Assembly: GCA_965216465.1 (NCBI GenBank)
Contig: CBDCFW010000001.1
Span: 128,001-192,000 of the forward strand
Source of the DNA: Bacteroidia bacterium
GTDB taxonomy: Bacteria > Bacteroidota > Bacteroidia > NS11-12g > UBA9320
Length of the DNA stretch: 64,000 nt
Direction: 5' to 3'
The notes beneath the pieces are model-generated. The model ran no database searches. It saw only the letters and a list, made by a program, of their open reading frames with translations, and was not told the DNA's origin. The position numbers and the translations under genes are program-made. Numbering within the stretch: the first letter of the stretch is position 1; every line of letters starts with the position of its first letter. Below, piece by piece: positions 36,242 to 42,732 of the stretch.

Positions 36242-37185
36242 TAGGCACGGATGTGTCTGTTGCAGCTAAGCTTTTGCAAAAAGGTGAAGTTGTAGCCATT
36301 CCCACCGAAACAGTTTATGGTTTAGGGGCAAATGCTCTAGACCCAAGCGCTGTCACTAAGATTTATCAAACCAAGGAACGTCCTTCGTTCAATCCATTAA
36401 TTCTTCATCTTCCAAATTTAGAAGCAGCAAGGCCTTATATTCAGGATGTTCATCCTATGGCTCAACAATTGGCTGACCGATTTTGGCCAGGCAGCTTGAG
36501 CTTGCTATTTCCAAAAACAGACATGGTTCCTGATATTGTTACTGCTGGATTGCCCAATGTGGTTATACGCGTCCCAAATCATGAATTAACGTTGCAATTA
36601 TTGCAGGAAGTAAAATTTCCGGTCGCAGCACCAAGTGCCAATATATCGAATACCGTTAGTCCAACTTCCGCAGAGCGGGTTCAACAGAACTTAGGTGATA
36701 AGATAGAGTACATTTTAGATGGCGGACCATGTACGGTTGGAGTGGAAAGTACAATCGTTTCCTTTGTTGATGATGAAGTTACGATTTTGCGTGAAGGAGG
36801 AATTAGCAAGGAAGAAATCGAAGCGGAGTTAGGAATTTCGGTATCGTATAAGAAGGCAAAAGAGGTTACTGCACCGGGCCAGCTTAAACGTCACTATGCG
36901 ACTCGAAAGCCGCTTTATGTTGTTGACGACATCGAAGAGGCCATGCTCAGCTTTAGGGATAAGAAGGTTTCGGCCATGTTGTTTGAAACCAAGCAGATTA
37001 AAGCCAATAAGGTATACCTCCTCTCCCACAACTACAATCTATCGGAAATAGCCATCAATTTATTTGAGATGATGAATAAGGCAGACGAAGACAATAGTGA
37101 AATCATCTTAGTAGAACGTATCAAAGAAGAGGGAATTGGAAAGGCTATCGCAGATCGTTTAAGAAGGGCGAGCACTGAGCTCTAA
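36238..37185 (+). CDS. tsaC: L-threonylcarbamoyladenylate synthase (Sua5 type)
   Basis: PTETVYGL, K.RP..NPLI, APSAN, GVEST, APG...HY, DRL.RA. Confidence 0.92.
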   Translation: MIGTDVSVAAKLLQKGEVVAIPTETVYGLGANALDPSAVTKIYQTKERPSFNPLILHLPNLEAARPYIQDVHPMAQQLADRFWPGSLSLLFPKTDMVPDIVTAGLPNVVIRVPNHELTLQLLQEVKFPVAAPSANISNTVSPTSAERVQQNLGDKIEYILDGGPCTVGVESTIVSFVDDEVTILREGGISKEEIEAELGISVSYKKAKEVTAPGQLKRHYATRKPLYVVDDIEEAMLSFRDKKVSAMLFETKQIKANKVYLLSHNYNLSEIAINLFEMMNKADEDNSEIILVERIKEEGIGKAIADRLRRASTEL

Positions 37186-37196
37186 CACACTCTAAA

Positions 37197-37245
37197 CTCA
37201 AACTCTTGCTCAAAACTCTTGCTCAAAACTCTTGCTCACACTCAA
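37197..37245. repeat. Three tandem copies of a 13-bp unit (AAACTCTTGCTCA) ending in the left arm of a 17-bp inverted repeat
   Basis: CTCTTGCT occurs at 37203, 37216 and 37229. Confidence 0.85.
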
Positions 37246-37256
37246 ACCTTAACCCC

Positions 37257-37397
37257 CTAAATATTCCAAATCAGAATTTCATCTGACTCGTTGTAGGAGT
37301 CTTCTGTAGAGGAGTAGTCGTCTGGATTGATGATTTTCATCATGCAAGTGCTTTCAGGATTTTCTGTAGCTTGCTTTATGAGTTCGTAGTATGACAT
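37257..37397 (-). CDS. Unannotated 46-aa acidic small protein MSYYELIKQATENPESTCMMKIINPDDYSSTEDSYNESDEILIWNI
   Basis: Intact ATG-TAG frame translated by hand; TAGCTTTG (-7 box) at 37419-37426 on the same strand. Confidence 0.55.
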   Translation of the reverse strand: MSYYELIKQATENPESTCMMKIINPDDYSSTEDSYNESDEILIWNI

Positions 37398-37567
37398 AGT
37401 GAATTAAAATCGTTGCTTCAAAGCTAGCGAGTTATGAAATGAACTTATACATCATTTTCTACACATAATGTGTATAGAATTGGATAGCGGACGGTTTGAT
37501 GAAGTCTTCTTACTTCGTCGTAATGCCTTAATCAACCAATTTAAGCTCTCTCGAAAAGGACATAGAG

Positions 37568-37584
37568 TTGAGTGTGAGCAAGAG
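37568..37584. repeat. Right arm of a perfect 17-bp inverted repeat (partner 37229-37245)
   Basis: TTGAGTGTGAGCAAGAG is the reverse complement of CTCTTGCTCACACTCAA. Confidence 0.85.
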
Positions 37585-37719
37585 AGTGAGAGTACGAATT
37601 CTACCTATTCAAGGTCTCTTGGAGAGGACCTTGAAGAGTCAAATGCCTACTTATTAAACCTACATGGTAAAATCATTCACCAACCTTTGCTATATTCGAT
37701 TCCTGAACTTCTTTAATAA

Positions 37720-37905
37720 ATGGAAAACCTCTACTTCATCTTCAAAGAAACCACTGCAATATTCATTATTTGGGTAGTTGCAGAGCTTATTTTCATGTAC
37801 AAGGACATTGCTCCAAAACAACGATGGAGGTACCGAACTTGGGTACTGGCTAGTGCAGTTTTTATTGGAGTTGCTGTTTATTTGGTTTGGAGGTCGAATT
37901 TCTAG
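37720..37905 (+). CDS. Small 2-TM membrane protein
   Basis: 61-aa ORF with two hydrophobic helices and a basic loop. Confidence 0.55.
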   Translation: MENLYFIFKETTAIFIIWVVAELIFMYKDIAPKQRWRYRTWVLASAVFIGVAVYLVWRSNF

Positions 37906-37960
37906 GTACCAAGTAATTAAGATCCCTAATGTAGACCTTTGATTAGGATTTCGTTGCATC

Positions 37961-38266
37961 CTAGTAACTCAACAGTATTCCGCAAATGGTGAAAACACCA
38001 AAAGCAACCCAAAACAAGATTGAAAGAAATCTCACATGCTTAGGTTGTATGGCTAAATTTAAAGGATTTAATGCGTACCATTTTGAATAGTGAGTTTTCA
38101 TTAAAAAACCTTCATCCTTAAAATCACTTCTATACAAATAGATATAATGCAAAATATATTTGAGAGCAAACGCACCAAAAGCAGTTAGTCCAGAGTAAAA
38201 TGATATGTCATATATTAAGGGTTGCATCGAATTTTCAATAGAGCAATTATTCACCAAAATAAACAA
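37961..38266 (-). CDS. Small membrane protein (cargo in the repeat array; start uncertain)
   Basis: 101-aa ORF with two hydrophobic segments; a downstream ATG (MQPLIY) is possible. Confidence 0.5.
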   Translation of the reverse strand: MFILVNNCSIENSMQPLIYDISFYSGLTAFGAFALKYILHYIYLYRSDFKDEGFLMKTHYSKWYALNPLNLAIQPKHVRFLSILFWVAFGVFTICGILLSY

Positions 38267-38330
38267 TTTGAATTGAAACCAGCATAGTGCACCTTAAATG
38301 AGCTGAATCAAACAAGTGTACCAATATTTG

Positions 38331-38392
38331 CAGTCAGTGGGAGATTGAGGGCGAATGCAGATGATTCTACCTGCACTTCGCATTATAAGTTG
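38331..38392. repeat. Hairpin array element, copy A (diverged, core apparently inverted)
   Basis: CAGTCAGTGGGAGATTGAGGGCGA-ATGCAGATGATTCTACCTGCA-CTTCGCATTATAAGTTG. Confidence 0.85.
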
Positions 38393-38400
38393 TTTACTAT

Positions 38401-39534
38401 TTATCTAAACTGATCTCTAATTGCAGCAATTGATTTCCCAGAGTTTGAGATTATAAGATACCTTACATCAGACACTATTCTTTTAAACTCCTCGTCATCT
38501 GACAACTCATTTACCGAATCCAAAAAGTCAATTAACTCTATTTCTATGTCTTCTTGATAAAGTATCTGACTATTGTCTTCACTTAAATACTTCTTCAGAA
38601 TGGGAATCGCAATCTTGCTGAGTTCTACTGCTTTCATTCCATTTCTCACACTCAGTCCTTCCTCTTTTATTATTGAGCTCAAATAGTAGTAGTCATTAAT
38701 ATACGACTTGCCAAGTTCAGAAGTTGACAATTCTGCTCTGATATCATAGAAAGTAGACTTGTCAATAATCTTCCCTGACACTTTTTCAGCCTCATTAATG
38801 CCACAAGTTCTTCCATAGCAATCAAAAGTCCCATCTCCATTCGACATGCAGTTCATATCCGGTGCCTCAAAACAAGGGTATTGACAGCCTTCTTTGTCCT
38901 TCTTAGGCTTGTCTGGAACATCAGGAGCTTTTTTAGACTTTAAGTAATTAGCACCTAAAACTTGGTGCAGAAAAACTGCATGATCAGGGACTTCAAATTC
39001 ATAATTACTCCGCAATGAAACTGCAGAAAAGAAGCGTTGATCTAAGTCCATTTGTCTCGCGAAAACTACAAAATCGTTAGTTGAGATTGCGTCAACCTCG
39101 ATTGACTTAAATCGATATGAAAGCTCGTTGCAATCAAATCCATCAACATACAGTCTCCCTTCTTTCAGATAAAAATACAATGCAGCTCTACTGGAATCCA
39201 GATTTAATTTCTCGCTTTTATCAAGTCGATTATTGAAGTATAAGACAATTGAGATTGGAATATTCTCGTCATTCTTCTGTATAAGATTGAACAAGTCCAT
39301 CTTTTGAATAATTGAATCTTGTCCAGTATAGTGAAATGCTAGATGAAAATTATTGTTAGTGTTGCTCTTGTTTGCATAGTACACTTGAAAGGAAATGGCA
39401 GCGAGATCATCACCAAAAAGTGCTGCTTGTTTATCAGGTGAAAACGTGTCGCAAGAAGCACATGTCAATCGATTACTATCCTTACAACTGAAAAGGAGAA
39501 AAAGGGCTAAAAATGCTAATGTTATTTTTTTCAT
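38401..39534 (-). CDS. Lipoprotein with a Cys-rich linker and helical C-terminal domain (cargo)
   Basis: Lipobox LFSC; CQYPC..C..C..C cluster; 377 aa. Confidence 0.75.
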   Translation of the reverse strand: MKKITLAFLALFLLFSCKDSNRLTCASCDTFSPDKQAALFGDDLAAISFQVYYANKSNTNNNFHLAFHYTGQDSIIQKMDLFNLIQKNDENIPISIVLYFNNRLDKSEKLNLDSSRAALYFYLKEGRLYVDGFDCNELSYRFKSIEVDAISTNDFVVFARQMDLDQRFFSAVSLRSNYEFEVPDHAVFLHQVLGANYLKSKKAPDVPDKPKKDKEGCQYPCFEAPDMNCMSNGDGTFDCYGRTCGINEAEKVSGKIIDKSTFYDIRAELSTSELGKSYINDYYYLSSIIKEEGLSVRNGMKAVELSKIAIPILKKYLSEDNSQILYQEDIEIELIDFLDSVNELSDDEEFKRIVSDVRYLIISNSGKSIAAIRDQFR

Positions 39535-39598
39535 GTCTTCAAAATGAAAACAACAAGCTCACACATATTGTAGAAATTCTACTACTTCATTAGTTGTT

Positions 39599-39652
39599 TT
39601 AATAAAAATCTTTAACTCCCTTATATACTCTAAGCTTTTCAAAATCAAACAT
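39599..39652 (-). pseudogene. Truncated 5' stub of the four-helix-bundle gene (MFDFEKLRVYKGVKDFY*)
   Basis: The first 7 residues and the upstream spacer match the intact copies; it stops after 17 codons. Confidence 0.8.
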
Positions 39653-39667
39653 GTATATCAAAATTCA

Positions 39668-39728
39668 CAGTCAGTGCGAGAATGAGGGCGAATGCAGGTA
39701 GAAGCACCCGTGCTTCACACTCTAACTG
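39668..39728. repeat. Hairpin array element, copy B
   Basis: CAGTCAGTGCGAGAATGAGGGCGA-ATGCAGGTAGAAGCACCCGTG-CTTCACACTCTAACTG. Confidence 0.92.
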
Positions 39729-39732
39729 CATT

Positions 39733-40080
39733 CTACTTCTCCAACTTCCGTATTAGAGCATATAACATCTTAGACAGCTCTTCTGCTTTCTGATAGAGTG
39801 TAGAGTACTCTTTTATATTGAGTTTTGATTTATCTTTAAGTATGTCGCAAATAGCAACACATTCAAATACTGAACTTCTAGAAATAACATAGAAATTTCT
39901 TTTATCACGATTCGTAAATCGTCCTGTACCTTCAGCTATGTTTAAAGCGATACTAAGTGAAGCCCGCTTGAGCTGATTGGTAATTACTGAATCTGGTTTA
40001 CAGTTGTCTAATAGTTTCTCAATTTCAAAATGAAATTCTTTTGCTCGCTTATAGACTGTAAGTTTTTCAAAATCAAACAT
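39733..40080 (-). CDS. Four-helix bundle protein (23S rRNA IVS / Avd-like family), copy 1
   Basis: FEKL.VY..A, QL.RAS.SIALNIAEG.GR, F..ISRSS..EC signature; ATG at 40080. Confidence 0.92.
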   Translation of the reverse strand: MFDFEKLTVYKRAKEFHFEIEKLLDNCKPDSVITNQLKRASLSIALNIAEGTGRFTNRDKRNFYVISRSSVFECVAICDILKDKSKLNIKEYSTLYQKAEELSKMLYALIRKLEK

Positions 40081-40095
40081 GCATATCAAAATTCA

Positions 40096-40156
40096 CAGCC
40101 AGTGCGAGAATGAGGGCGAATACGGGTAGAATCACCCGCGCTTCACACTCTAACTG
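40096..40156. repeat. Hairpin array element, copy C
   Basis: CAGCCAGTGCGAGAATGAGGGCGA-ATACGGGTAGAATCACCCGCG-CTTCACACTCTAACTG. Confidence 0.92.
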
Positions 40157-40157
40157 T

Positions 40158-40508
40158 TTACTTCTTCTCCAACTTCCGTATTAGAGCATATAACATCTTA
40201 GACAGCTCTTCTGCTTTCTGATAGAGTGTAGAGTACTCTTTTATATTGAGTTTTGATTTATCTTTAAGTATATCACAAATAGCAACACATTCAAATACTG
40301 AACTTCTAGAAATAACATAGAAATTTCTTTTATCACGATTCGTAAATCGTCCTGTACCTTCAGCTATATTTAAAGCGATACTAAGTGAAGCCCGCTTGAG
40401 CTGATTGGTAATTACTGAATCTGGTTTACAGTTGTCTAATAGTTTCTCAATTTCAAAATGAAATTCTTTTGCACGCCTATAGACTGAAAGCTTTTCAAAA
40501 TCAAACAT
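40158..40508 (-). CDS. Four-helix bundle protein (23S rRNA IVS / Avd-like family), copy 2
   Basis: Near-identical to copy 1 (about 7 substitutions counted by eye, plus one extra terminal Lys). Confidence 0.92.
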   Translation of the reverse strand: MFDFEKLSVYRRAKEFHFEIEKLLDNCKPDSVITNQLKRASLSIALNIAEGTGRFTNRDKRNFYVISRSSVFECVAICDILKDKSKLNIKEYSTLYQKAEELSKMLYALIRKLEKK

Positions 40509-40523
40509 GCATATCAAAATTCA

Positions 40524-40584
40524 CAGTCAGTGCGAGAATGAGGGCGAGTGTGAGTAAGAACACTCACACTTCACACTCTAACTG
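40524..40584. repeat. Hairpin array element, copy D
   Basis: CAGTCAGTGCGAGAATGAGGGCGA-GTGTGAGTAAGAACACTCACA-CTTCACACTCTAACTG. Confidence 0.92.
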
Positions 40585-40587
40585 TTA

Positions 40588-40643
40588 TGGTACCCAGGGT
40601 CGGGCTCCCCAACGTTGCAGTTGGGATAAACTTCTCGCCCGAC
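40588..40643 (-). repeat. Duplicated tRNA-Leu 3' end (T-arm, acceptor strand and CCA) with a palindrome in the T-loop
   Basis: 40590-40607 is identical to 40703-40720 (18 bp). The GTCGGG/CCCGAC stem encloses CCCAAC-N6-GTTGGG. Confidence 0.85.
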
Positions 40644-40666
40644 TTTAGAATTCAAATTTTCGCCAT

Positions 40667-40696
40667 AAAAAAAGCTGACCTAGAAGATCAGCTTTT
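40667..40696 (-). terminator. Intrinsic terminator after tRNA-Leu
   Basis: AAAAGCTGA/TCAGCTTTT stem with a U-tract on the minus strand. Confidence 0.75.
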
Positions 40697-40703
40697 CATT
40701 TTG

Positions 40704-40785
40704 TACCCAGGGTCGGGCTCGAACCGACACGTCTTGCGACATTGGTGTTTGAGACCAACGCGTCTACCAATTCCGCCACCTGGGC
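40704..40785 (-). tRNA. tRNA-Leu (anticodon CAA)
   Basis: GCCCAGG/CCTGGGT acceptor stem, GGAATTGGTAGAC D-loop, TTGGT-CTCAAAC-ACCAA anticodon arm, long variable arm, GGTTCGAGCCC T-arm. Confidence 0.96.
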
Positions 40786-40864
40786 ATGAAAGGACGTTTA
40801 CGTCCTTGAGCATACAGACCTAAGCGTCTGCACCGATTCAAGACCTACAACCAGGTTTCTCAAA

Positions 40865-41395
40865 TCAGGCTGCGAATGTATTTAGACTTTCTCTTATTCG
40901 CAACACATACTTTAACTTTAAGTATGTTTCTTTAACTTTTTCTAAAATTTCTTTTCGAGCTTCACTTCCAACTTCCAACTTATCAGCCTCTCCCGCCCTA
41001 TTCGCTAACTCCAAATTCAATTCTTCTTCCAACTGCCTTACCTCCATCAATACTTCATCTTGCTTCGCAGCATCAGGATCCATTTTTAAATCCATAATAT
41101 CCTCATTGATGTCCATCATCTCCATTAAAAAGCTTTGCGGAATAGCATTCTGTGCCTCTTGAAGCACCTCATTAAGTTTTAGAATGTAATTCACTCTCGA
41201 GCTGAACTTGCTTAACGCCTTGAATGCCGAATTATTGGTACTCGTCGTTTCTAAAGCCTGCTCATACTTCGCTTCATCATCAATAACAAAATCAGGGTGA
41301 TGCTCTTTACTAATCTTAAAGAATAGCTGTTTTAACTCAGCTTCATCCAAGAAGAATTGCTCTTCTATACCATAAAACTGAAAGTAGTTCATCAA
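40865..41395 (-). CDS. hscB: Fe-S co-chaperone HscB
   Basis: NYF, J-domain HPD, FLMEMMDINE. Confidence 0.88.
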   Translation of the reverse strand: MMNYFQFYGIEEQFFLDEAELKQLFFKISKEHHPDFVIDDEAKYEQALETTSTNNSAFKALSKFSSRVNYILKLNEVLQEAQNAIPQSFLMEMMDINEDIMDLKMDPDAAKQDEVLMEVRQLEEELNLELANRAGEADKLEVGSEARKEILEKVKETYLKLKYVLRIRESLNTFAA

Positions 41396-42732
41396 CTAAA
41401 AAACGCGTTTAAGCTATCAATAAACAGTATAAAGCCCATTAAAGCAAAAAGTAGAATCATTCCAACGATTTGGAAGTAGTACATTACTTTCTCAGGCAAT
41501 GGCTTTCTTCTAACCATCTCTATCAATAAGAACAATACGTGTCCTCCATCTAAAGCCGGAATAGGTAACAAGTTCATGAAAGCTAAGACAAATGATAGCA
41601 TTCCTGTAATCTGCCAGAATCGATGCCAGTTCCATTCCGCTCCATAAATGGTAGCAATTGTAATCGGCCCGCTTAATGTTTTGGTTGGATTAAGCTTTCC
41701 TTTAATCATCTCACCAAAAGCTCTAATGTTTAAGTTCAAGGTGTTAATTCCTCTCCTGGTTCCTTCTGGGAACGATTCTAAAAAGCCAAACTTCGTGGTA
41801 ATGGTTTTACCTGCAAATTCAGAAACATCATCCATCAATATTCCAACTCTACCATTGGTATCTAGTTTGTGCTTTATCTCAATTGATTCGTTGTCTCTGA
41901 TTATACCTATAGTTACTTCTTCACCTTTGTGATTTTGAAGCTCATCCTTCATGTTATTGTGAAAAGGAGTAGCAACATCATTAACCGATACAATTTGGTC
42001 GCCTTTTTCAAAGCCAGAACTCTTAGCCTCTTCAGTTTGTGCTTCATATACAATAGACTTAATACGCTTGTCGTATAAGCCACGGCCTTTGCTTTCCATA
42101 ACCTTAGGCTTTATACTATCTGCCAGAATGAAGTCACGAATTTGACCATTATTTTCTACGGTATAAGTTAGATCTTCATCTCCTGAAAAGAAAAGTTCAG
42201 GCTTACTAAATTCACGGTATTTTTCAAGCTTCTCACCGTTCAATGCGATAAGTTTATCTCCTTCTTTGAATCCTGCTTGAACTCCTAATTCGGTAGGAAC
42301 AATTCCATTCACATTAGCTACTTCTGTTGGTAACCATGTATCTCCATAGTGCCATAGTGATAAGGCGAAAATTAATATTCCTAAAAAGAAATTAACCGTT
42401 ACCCCACCAATCATAACAATCAAACGCTGCCATGCTGGCTTGCTTCTAAATTCATAATCTTCAGGTTCTGAAGCCATTTGCTCTTTGTCAAGGCTTTCAT
42501 CTATCATTCCTGAAATTTTAACATAGCCTCCAAGTGGCAACCATCCAATACCCCATTCGGTGTCGTTTACCTTCTTGCTGAAAAGCTTTACTCCCCAAGC
42601 ATCGAAGAAGATGTAGAATTTCTCAACACGTATACCAAAAGTACGTGCTGCGATGTAATGCCCCCATTCATGCAACGATACTAAAATAGCTAACGCTAGT
42701 ATCAGTTGCCCTGCCATGATTAATGTTCCCAT
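41392..42732 (-). CDS. rseP: RIP metalloprotease RseP
   Basis: HEWGH, PLGGYVK, PDZ domains, NLLPIPALDGG. Confidence 0.95.
   Translation of the reverse strand: MGTLIMAGQLILALAILVSLHEWGHYIAARTFGIRVEKFYIFFDAWGVKLFSKKVNDTEWGIGWLPLGGYVKISGMIDESLDKEQMASEPEDYEFRSKPAWQRLIVMIGGVTVNFFLGILIFALSLWHYGDTWLPTEVANVNGIVPTELGVQAGFKEGDKLIALNGEKLEKYREFSKPELFFSGDEDLTYTVENNGQIRDFILADSIKPKVMESKGRGLYDKRIKSIVYEAQTEEAKSSGFEKGDQIVSVNDVATPFHNNMKDELQNHKGEEVTIGIIRDNESIEIKHKLDTNGRVGILMDDVSEFAGKTITTKFGFLESFPEGTRRGINTLNLNIRAFGEMIKGKLNPTKTLSGPITIATIYGAEWNWHRFWQITGMLSFVLAFMNLLPIPALDGGHVLFLLIEMVRRKPLPEKVMYYFQIVGMILLFALMGFILFIDSLNAFFS

Follow-up and report, generated by a model that had tools for sequence, protein, structure and literature searches.

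A tandem array of PF05635 gene cassettes joined by hairpins with constant arms and variable tips in a Bacteroidia bacterium

Organization of the locus

The window analysed here, a stretch of 64 000 nucleotides from contig CBDCFW010000001.1 of a Bacteroidia bacterium, carries a compact array of short genes and hairpins on the minus strand (Table 1). Two intact genes of the PF05635 four-helix-bundle family lie in the array, both scoring above the gathering cut-off of the family (33.8 bits), and gene 2 also matches PDB entry 2GSC (E = 2.6e-4). The two genes differ in seven codons, five of these differences being synonymous. A third gene of the same family survives only as a dead 5' stump, and the lipoprotein-like gene encoding 377 amino acids occupies a broken PF05635 unit that has stumps at both ends. 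No Pfam family matched this 377-aa protein, which has only four weak relatives among the 190 other genomes of the order. Small ORFs in the adjoining interval 37186–38330 likewise matched no Pfam family and contained no convincing PF05635 remnant.

The sole RNA gene in the region is that of tRNA-Leu(CAA), the only entry above its gathering score in an Rfam search of 37000–42000 (E up to 5); no rRNA match was present in the same interval. An ordinary hairpin with a T-run follows the tRNA gene (approximately 40667–40697) and, 113 nt behind the gene, an 18-nt fragment repeats its 3' end. Copy D of the repeat described below starts 5 nt after this fragment, an abutment that resembles the way in which real tRNA and tmRNA ends stand beside the hairpin in other genomes. 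On the far side of the insert, the only candidate for a second, att-like copy of the tRNA end was a 12/14 inverted match (37833–37846), which was not trusted. The DNA of 39600–40620 was not found in 27 genomes of the same genus, and the best protein identity detected elsewhere was 62% among genome contigs and 60% among contigs from metagenomes.

A repeat of approximately 70 nt is present in four copies (A to D in Table 1), and an 18-nt anchor beside the cores occurs four times in the window versus 0.02 occurrences expected. A search of the 3.23-Mb genome with a 72-nt profile gave no further copy (next match E = 2.5); with four copies at a single locus, the genome does not show the distribution of REP-type dispersed palindromes. 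Read along the minus strand, each unit runs from a CA-rich R arm through a short leader and the PF05635 gene to a GT-rich L arm, and the array has a period of 428 nt. Each repeat is the joint of successive minus-strand PF05635 cassettes rather than a stand-alone element, and the 21-nt core is the innermost closing stem-loop of a long hairpin between tandem cassettes. The first-pass annotation of this DNA had described the cores as lying inside otherwise constant repeats; the constancy of the flanks was borne out, but the context had been missed, i.e. that the repeats are the arms of PF05635 cassettes. Copy A, in which the L arm is decayed and the tip inverted relative to B and C, is an older copy.

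Table 1. Positions of the hairpin copies, genes and gene remnants (coordinates are those of the window).
Feature	Position	Strand	Remarks
tRNA-Leu(CAA) gene	40703..40785	(-)	ARAGORN; Rfam tRNA, 55 bits
18-nt copy of tRNA-Leu 3' end	40590..40607	(-)	Exact repeat of 40703–40720
Hairpin copy D	40518..40589	(-)	L arm 40569–40584; core 40548–40568; R arm and leader 40518–40547
PF05635 four-helix-bundle gene 2	40158..40505	(-)	115 aa; ATG at 40505; Pfam E = 6.7e-25
Hairpin copy C	40090..40161	(-)	Core 40120–40140
PF05635 four-helix-bundle gene 1	39733..40077	(-)	114 aa; Pfam E = 2.4e-25
Hairpin copy B	39662..39733	(-)	Core 39692–39712
Dead 5' stump of third PF05635 gene	39601..39651	(-)	16 codons FDFEKLRVYKGVKDFY, behind copy B; tblastn E = 8e-5
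377-aa lipoprotein-like orphan gene	38401..39534	(-)	ORF inside third cassette
Hairpin copy A	38325..38396	(-)	Core 38355–38375
Short stump of PF05635 gene start	~38300–38324		Behind copy A

Variation of the core and its flanks

All four core sequences were recovered at their positions as the first-pass annotation had quoted them, and so was the contrast between core and flank that it had reported for copies C and D, which differ at 10 of 21 core positions versus 1 of 72 flank positions (Fisher p = 4e-7). The corresponding figures are 11/21 versus 1/72 for B and D (p = 6e-8) and 4/21 versus 2/72 for B and C (p = 0.02), while copy A differs from B, C and D at 10–13 of the 21 core positions and at 18–20 of the 72 flank positions (p = 0.003–0.045). 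The core excess rests essentially on copy D versus copies B and C, within a set of only four copies, three of which are near-duplicates. The B and C cores have diverged from each other roughly as much as has the dead stump of the third gene, which lies behind copy B (10/60). Transitions account for 9/10 of the core differences between C and D and for 11/11 of those between B and D, run in both directions and have no adenine specificity.

Two further descriptions of the core hold at this locus and not beyond it. Its length is fixed at 21 bp here, whereas the centre of related elements spans approximately 20–60 nt. Similarly, the core can be called hypervariable in the window, but in 38 pairs of related elements from the wider family the centre did not clearly exceed the arms in variability (difference rates of 0.13–0.18 up to 10 nt from the loop centre versus 0.10–0.17 farther out), an outcome largely against what the first-pass annotation had expected of a larger alignment, and most of 24 within-locus comparisons of upstream with downstream elements showed few, scattered differences. 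Low-depth contigs (depth approximately 2–6) from four DNA sequencing runs of one study, which may represent the source sample, reproduced the cores of B and C in full and that of D in part. These contigs contained no core variants and only three differences, all of them paralogue mix-ups between the two genes.

Once inverted, the core of copy A matches those of B and C at 15 of 20 positions, compared with 10–11 of 21 when read directly; the remaining 5/20 differences from each are no more than A shows in its flanks. Moreover, the loop of copy A is the exact reverse complement of the loop of copy C. Tip flips with unchanged arms were also detected by a direct motif search at other loci, i.e. 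in L061, in L106 and in the downstream elements of L062 and L112, when set against L052, L063 and the upstream elements of L062 and L112; an automatic screen for tip inversions, the criteria of which were overly strict, had given none. The suggestion that the core is actively rewritten or exchanged can be kept only in this modest sense, namely that the tip of A is inverted relative to B and C and that flips occur in other genomes.

Pairing and folding of the hairpin

The pairing reported for the core stems was reproduced exactly, with Watson–Crick pairs at 7/7 positions in D, 6/7 in A, 5/7 in C and 4/7 in B, and with every mismatch being G–T or A–C. The core of copy D forms a perfect 9-bp stem, a palindrome that includes the inner motif usual for the family. 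Over the whole tip helix 90.6% of cells are paired and three of eight pairs have changed on both sides; with four copies, 67 of 500 shuffles reached three double-sided pairs and 21 of 500 reached the score, i.e. the covariation is weak. The earlier proposal that structure and not sequence is selected thus fits the degree of pairing, the double-sided changes and the transitions through G–T, but its statistical footing in four copies is slight.

For each gene, the upstream and downstream sequences are strongly complementary, with predicted duplexes of −38.3 and −40.4 kcal/mol. In copies B, C and D the sense strand folds better than the antisense strand by 5–6 kcal/mol, and the outer helix of the window hairpins has invariant U–G pairs, which become A–C on the opposite strand. 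Across 17 related elements, G–T outnumbers A–C on the sense strand by 23 to 9 (p = 0.02). For whole spacers it is the antisense strand that folds slightly better, the sense strand being lower in only 10 of 32. Duplexes between cognate upstream and downstream sequences averaged −21.2 kcal/mol versus −17.2 kcal/mol for non-cognate combinations, the cognate one being best in 6/108, a modest difference; many loci have identical arms. RNAalifold gave no consensus structure for 21 family spacers, the MAFFT alignment of which was not in structural register. No terminator-like site was found in 38200–40850, where the window hairpins have no T-run; A-tract and T-tract flanks are present in many relatives.

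Related cassettes in other Bacteroidota

The PF05635 family (protein of 23S rRNA intervening sequences, IVS, or Avd-like) is widespread, and we know of no function for its free-standing members. Within the order, 128 of 191 genomes encode the family. Among the 90 related genes across Bacteroidota with 800 nt or more of sequence upstream, we detected a tRNA or tmRNA gene on the same strand, ending no more than 800 nt upstream, in 63 cases (chance expectation 0.0064 per gene), and in related loci the module of hairpin and PF05635 gene directly trails the tRNA or tmRNA gene. The window copies align with 18 spacers that lie between stable-RNA 3' ends and PF05635 genes. Related spacers have common L-arm and CCCTCA...CTCACACTC R-arm motifs around a variable centre, the arm motif being present at 55 places in 65 loci. 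Candidate cultured carriers of the module are Crocinitomix catalasitica ATCC 23190 (L035, where it follows tmRNA), Labilibacter sediminis CG51 (L036) and Saccharicrinis sp. (L033 and L040). A PF05635 hairpin module outside rRNA was not found described in the literature searched; in the passages of two papers that name a 'four helix bundle protein' (PMC8700078, PMC8491059) the gene is merely listed.

Origin of the variable tip

We think it probable that the core is an unconstrained hairpin tip between tandem IVS-type cassettes, in which sequence drifts as long as pairing is kept and template switching brings further changes, and that its variability is not programmed. Where two units meet, a long imperfect hairpin would form from the L arm of the first and the R arm of the second, and its tip would have no sequence role and need only close the helix. 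The arms are constant because their motifs are conserved across Bacteroidota, and recombination between tandem units may also keep them alike; the tip, lacking a sequence role, would therefore accumulate changes, mostly transitions passing through G–T(U) intermediates. From time to time, a template switch during replication within the palindrome may rebuild the tip in a single step and leave either perfectly complementary arms, as in copy D, or a flip of the whole tip, as in copy A. Template switching is described as homogenizing the arms of inverted repeats and inverting their spacers (PMC8604942) and as maintaining RNA hairpins (PMC8794818), and we infer that it, rather than point mutation, produced particular tip changes at this locus. 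The perfect palindrome of copy D, the exact loop inversion of copy A and the restriction of clustered multi-nucleotide differences to an inverted repeat all resemble template-switch (quasipalindrome) mutation; this is, however, a mutational process and not an element, and it explains how the tip changes but not what the hairpin is for.

The low synonymous divergence between the two genes (5 differences) means that a purely neutral tip requires the gene bodies to have been homogenized. Such homogenization between units is plausible, to judge from the position of the gene differences, 4/7 of which fall within the first 11 codons. As for the hairpin, by analogy it may act in the transcript, e.g. 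as a double-stranded processing or stabilizing stem like the RNase III stem of the 23S IVS. The variable core as such is most probably nothing out of the ordinary.

It seems rather unlikely that the palindrome is no more than a by-product at the DNA level, i.e. a feature of cassette duplication or movement in which pairing is kept by template-switch homogenization and has no role in RNA. The tip inversions do show DNA-level events acting on the palindrome, a general sense-strand folding advantage is missing from the 32 spacers, and arm homogenization by template switching has been documented (PMC8604942), but homogenization must be infrequent because copies B and C retain imperfect tips (4/7 and 5/7 Watson–Crick pairs), and the sense-strand surplus of G–T over A–C and the invariant U–G pairs of the outer helix, A–C on the other strand, also speak against this reading. 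More doubtful still is a role of the hairpin as a recombination site like attC, in which crossover would take place in the tip and the joints would be chimeras of half-tips brought by each cassette. Like an integron array, the locus alternates short genes with imperfect hairpins that are conserved at the ends and variable in the middle, it has a non-PF05635 gene (that of 377 aa) between copies A and B, and the 3' tip arm of B perfectly complements the 5' tip arm of A, as that of C pairs at 6/7 positions with the 5' arm of B. The complementarity of A and B is equally explained by the inversion of the A tip, which also accounts for the inverted loop, whereas the flanks of gene 2 (3' arm of D and 5' arm of C) pair at only 4/7 positions, and in each of L052, L063 and L061 both joints bear an identical asymmetric tip, which the exchange of cassettes does not predict. 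Nor is the 377-aa gene, lying in a broken PF05635 unit, a clean cassette, and nearly all cassettes of this single locus belong to one gene family. An integron integrase is absent (best TIGR02249 match 75.5 bits versus a cut-off of 265, with all matches on other contigs), the same search gave no tyrosine recombinase on the contig of the array, and the end motifs, compared by eye with those of attC, do not have the inverse-core/core arrangement, a core-like word standing at the wrong end on either strand.

A variant in which the array belongs to a cassette-shuffling system that lacks a known recombinase, with units leaving and entering at a crossover point in the tip, perhaps aided by the PF05635 protein, we regard as a long shot. 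The joints would in this case be chimeras of unit-specific half-tips, and genes from elsewhere, e.g. the 377-aa gene, could be captured; if this were true, a new class of mobile gene cassette would have to be recognized in the PF05635 cassettes found behind tRNA, tmRNA and rRNA genes. Least credible of all is programmed diversification or a guide-like small RNA, in which the variable centre would pair with targets or be rewritten by a dedicated enzyme in the manner of a DGR. PF05635 is similar to Avd, the accessory protein of DGRs (PMC10053308), and the differences are locally concentrated in a segment of fixed length. Yet no reverse transcriptase (RVT_1, PF00078) was matched in the genome, which is 100% complete, and the locus has neither a template repeat nor the adenine-specific pattern of a DGR, the transitions being bidirectional. 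With up to three mismatches allowed, none of the cores matched a further site in the genome, and exact searches of viral contigs with the four cores gave 0, 0, 0 and 1 match, the last (core D in L154) falling in an apparent ORF, as judged by eye, with unrelated flanks, and being taken as chance. The self-complementary cores suit a hairpin better than a guide, and in relatives the centre is neither of fixed length nor hypervariable. The processed small RNA with a variable centre that had been put forward for this locus is left unsupported, and nothing supports programmed variation or a guide-like small RNA.

Relation to known systems

The IVS of Coxiella burnetii is described as 428 nt in length, with a terminal stem of 28 bp that RNase III cleaves (PMC4990558). 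The window array is like such ORF-bearing 23S rRNA IVS (S23p in Coxiella burnetii, and those of Leptospira) in its small PF05635-family ORF, in the complementary ends that enclose the ORF and are able to form a long stem, in a unit of approximately 428 nt and in its tie to a stable-RNA gene. It differs in lying behind a tRNA fragment and not in helix 9, 25 or 45 of 23S rRNA, and in being a tandem array, so that local hairpins arise between the arms of adjacent units. The location in 23S rRNA is the one known in print, whereas the location behind tRNA and tmRNA genes is seen in the present analysis, and the locus adds evidence that PF05635 genes move about in units bracketed by a hairpin and associated with stable-RNA genes. 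It also makes it possible to ask whether the stem directs RNA processing in the way that the RNase III stem does in the rRNA IVS. As an instance of hairpin evolution it combines constant arms with a tip that is free, changing by transitions and sometimes flipping, and it offers a probable natural example of template-switch mutation that keeps a hairpin intact.

With the PF05635 cassettes that trail tRNA and tmRNA genes in other Bacteroidota, the array shares the gene family, the L-arm and CCCTCA-type R-arm motifs, tandem duplication and a place directly behind a tRNA 3' end. In contrast to them, the window array abuts only the 18-nt tRNA fragment, its L arm is shorter, the gene has been replaced in one unit, and the tips have diverged, one of them being inverted.

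Architecture of the cassette array

The four ~70-nt hairpin repeats (copies A–D), spaced successively at 1337, 428 and 428 nt, are the joints of IVS-type PF05635 cassettes (IVS, intervening sequence of 23S rRNA) behind a tRNA gene. An 18-nt anchor of the element occurs four times in the window against 0.02 expected, and a whole-element profile search of the 3.23-Mb genome returned only copies A–D, without recovering three further anchor-like matches elsewhere. All genes between the copies lie on the minus strand. Read on this strand, each element comprises a GT-rich L arm beginning directly 3' of a stop codon, the core (the central 21 nt) and a CA-rich R arm that starts with CCCTCA and is followed by ~20 nt and then the next ATG. 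L and R arms base-pair in the window copies, two U-G pairs being invariant, and in copies B, C and D the gene-strand fold is 5–6 kcal/mol better than that of the opposite strand.

Repeat copies and genes of the cassette array
Feature	Coordinates	Strand	Pfam E
Element copy A	38325-38396
Lipoprotein-like orphan gene, 377 aa, without Pfam family	38401-39534	-
Element copy B	39662-39733
PF05635 (23S_rRNA_IVP) four-helix-bundle gene	39733-40077	-	~1e-25
Element copy C	40090-40161
PF05635 (23S_rRNA_IVP) four-helix-bundle gene, near-identical to the preceding one	40158-40505	-	~1e-25
Element copy D	40518-40589

The nearest solved structure to the two PF05635 proteins is 2GSC, which is taken as the family representative and as homologous to Avd, the accessory protein of diversity-generating retroelements (PMC10053308). 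Among 190 further genomes from the order, only four weak relatives of the orphan turned up. Remnants of PF05635 genes lie behind copy B (a third gene, dead and reduced to 16 codons) and behind copy A (still shorter), so the orphan sits within a broken unit, having taken the place of the inner part of a PF05635 cassette whose old gene survives as stumps on either side.

Copy D adjoins 18 nt that duplicate the 3' end of tRNA-Leu and lie 113 nt behind the genuine tRNA-Leu(CAA). This exact direct repeat (40590-40607 and 40703-40720) encloses the terminator-like hairpin of the tRNA and resembles a scar left by an integration or a rearrangement through which the array was displaced from the tRNA. 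In two genomes of the same genus (G003 and G007) Sua5 and tRNA-Leu are separated by ~100 nt containing an ordinary terminator, and 37186-40702 is missing from both; this stretch is thus an insert of ~3.5 kb. Two further genomes (G016 and G014) carry different inserts at the same Sua5/tRNA-Leu site.

The module in relatives and in 23S rRNA

Relatives of the protein are encoded at 121 loci (65 in genomes, best identity 62%; 56 in metagenomes, best identity 60%). A same-strand tRNA or tmRNA gene ends within 800 nt upstream in 63 of the 90 genes for which 800 nt or more of upstream sequence is available, against a chance expectation of 0.0064 per gene. These stable-RNA genes (27 tmRNA, 15 Leu, 9 Arg and others) mostly lie 83–360 nt away. 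The spacers share one design, in which a hairpin begins a few nt past the stable-RNA 3' end and runs from a GAGTGTGAG-type L arm through a variable centre of ~20–60 nt to a CCCTCA...CTCACACTC leader, a second L arm following just 3' of the stop codon. The window copies can be aligned with these spacers, and the core of copy D has the inner stem usual for the family.

Within the order, 128 of 191 genomes encode a member of the PF05635 family. Nine loci (L144-L151 and L153, in the related genomes G067, G066, G069, G030, G071, G014, G001, G068 and G089) carry PF05635 genes in operons away from tRNAs; here the bracketing complementary arms consist of short tandem units of other kinds, and the arrangement orf~592 / 4HB / orf~392 / 4HB / orf~700 is common to several genomes. 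One-arm tandem arrays also occur in some relatives: eight R-arm copies, some of them in runs with a 37-nt period, at L052 (2886-3310), about ten R-arm-like units at L073 (2829-3200), and repeated L arms at L039 (downstream of the gene), L038 and L049.

The published relatives of the window cassette are the ORF-bearing IVSs of 23S rRNA, which have the same gene family, bracket and size, whereas the window unit lies outside rRNA. The Coxiella IVS is described as 428 nt long, with an S23p ORF and inverted repeats at its borders that form a 28-bp stem cleaved by RNase III (PMC4990558). Its length equals the tandem period of 39601-40456, a shared size class that the ~115-codon gene together with its arms probably determines. 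In the open-access literature, to which our search was confined, we found no description of PF05635 cassettes behind tRNA or tmRNA genes.

Variation of the hairpin tip

The core variation reported in the first-pass annotation is confirmed, its interpretation only in part. Copies C and D differ at 10 of 21 core positions but at one of 72 flank positions (Fisher p=4e-7), B and D at 11 of 21, all transitions, against one of 72 (p=6e-8), and B and C at 4 of 21 against two of 72 (p=0.02). The Watson-Crick pairs in the tip stem were likewise reproduced (D 7/7, A 6/7, C 5/7, B 4/7), every mismatch being G-T or A-C. Copy A must be read differently from B–D, as its core, when inverted, differs at 5 of 20 positions from B and from C and is no more divergent than its flanks (18–20 of 72); the 6-nt loops of A and C are exact reverse complements. 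The contrast between core and flank may be due in part to unusually constant flanks: arm motifs are conserved across orders, and the cores of B and C have diverged about as far as the dead gene remnant behind B (10 of 60). The gene bodies may also be homogenized, given that four of the seven codons differing between the two PF05635 genes fall within the first 11.

Most likely, the variable core is an unconstrained hairpin tip. The suggestion that structure is selected, or the core rewritten or exchanged, holds in so far as it is structure that counts rather than sequence, and the tip is open to being remade. Tests of a programmed mechanism were negative. RVT_1 had no match in the genome, and no integron integrase scored above cut-off there or occurred on this contig. 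The core changes are transitions in both directions. Nor was a target of the cores found: no other genomic site lies within three mismatches of any core (shuffled controls, 0–1 matches) and exact searches of viral contigs gave zero, zero, zero and one match. The latter, to core D in a 343-kb viral contig (L154, 301-321), falls in an apparent open reading frame (read by eye) with unrelated flanks and was taken for chance. Covariation is statistically weak, both sides having changed in three of eight tip pairs among the four copies, a result equalled in 67 of 500 shuffles. Across the wider family we found no tip hypervariability: difference rates in 38 related pairs were 0.13–0.18 near the loop and 0.10–0.17 elsewhere, and 24 within-locus comparisons showed mostly few, scattered differences.

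A possible RNA role draws support from the excess of sense-strand G-T over A-C pairs (23 versus 9, p=0.02, counted over 17 long palindromes that are related to one another) and from the better sense-strand fold of the window copies. Against it, antisense folds slightly better over 32 whole spacers (sense lower in 10), and the window hairpins are not terminator-like. Swapping of cassettes by crossover in the hairpin tip would explain the complementarities between cores; we consider it improbable, since tip inversion accounts for the same complementarities and the loop as well, and exchange fails at L052, L063 and L061. An asymmetric tip of 26–28 nt has one orientation at L052, L063 and upstream at L062 and L112, and is reversed relative to unchanged arms at L061, L106 and downstream at L062 and L112. 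Wobble-type transitions in the tip stem also separate L093 and L032. Template switching between inverted-repeat arms is described as homogenizing arms and inverting spacers (PMC8604942), and a part in the origin and upkeep of RNA hairpins has been proposed for it (PMC8794818); both the tip of copy D, a perfect 9-bp palindrome, and that of copy A, which is flipped, are consistent with such outcomes.
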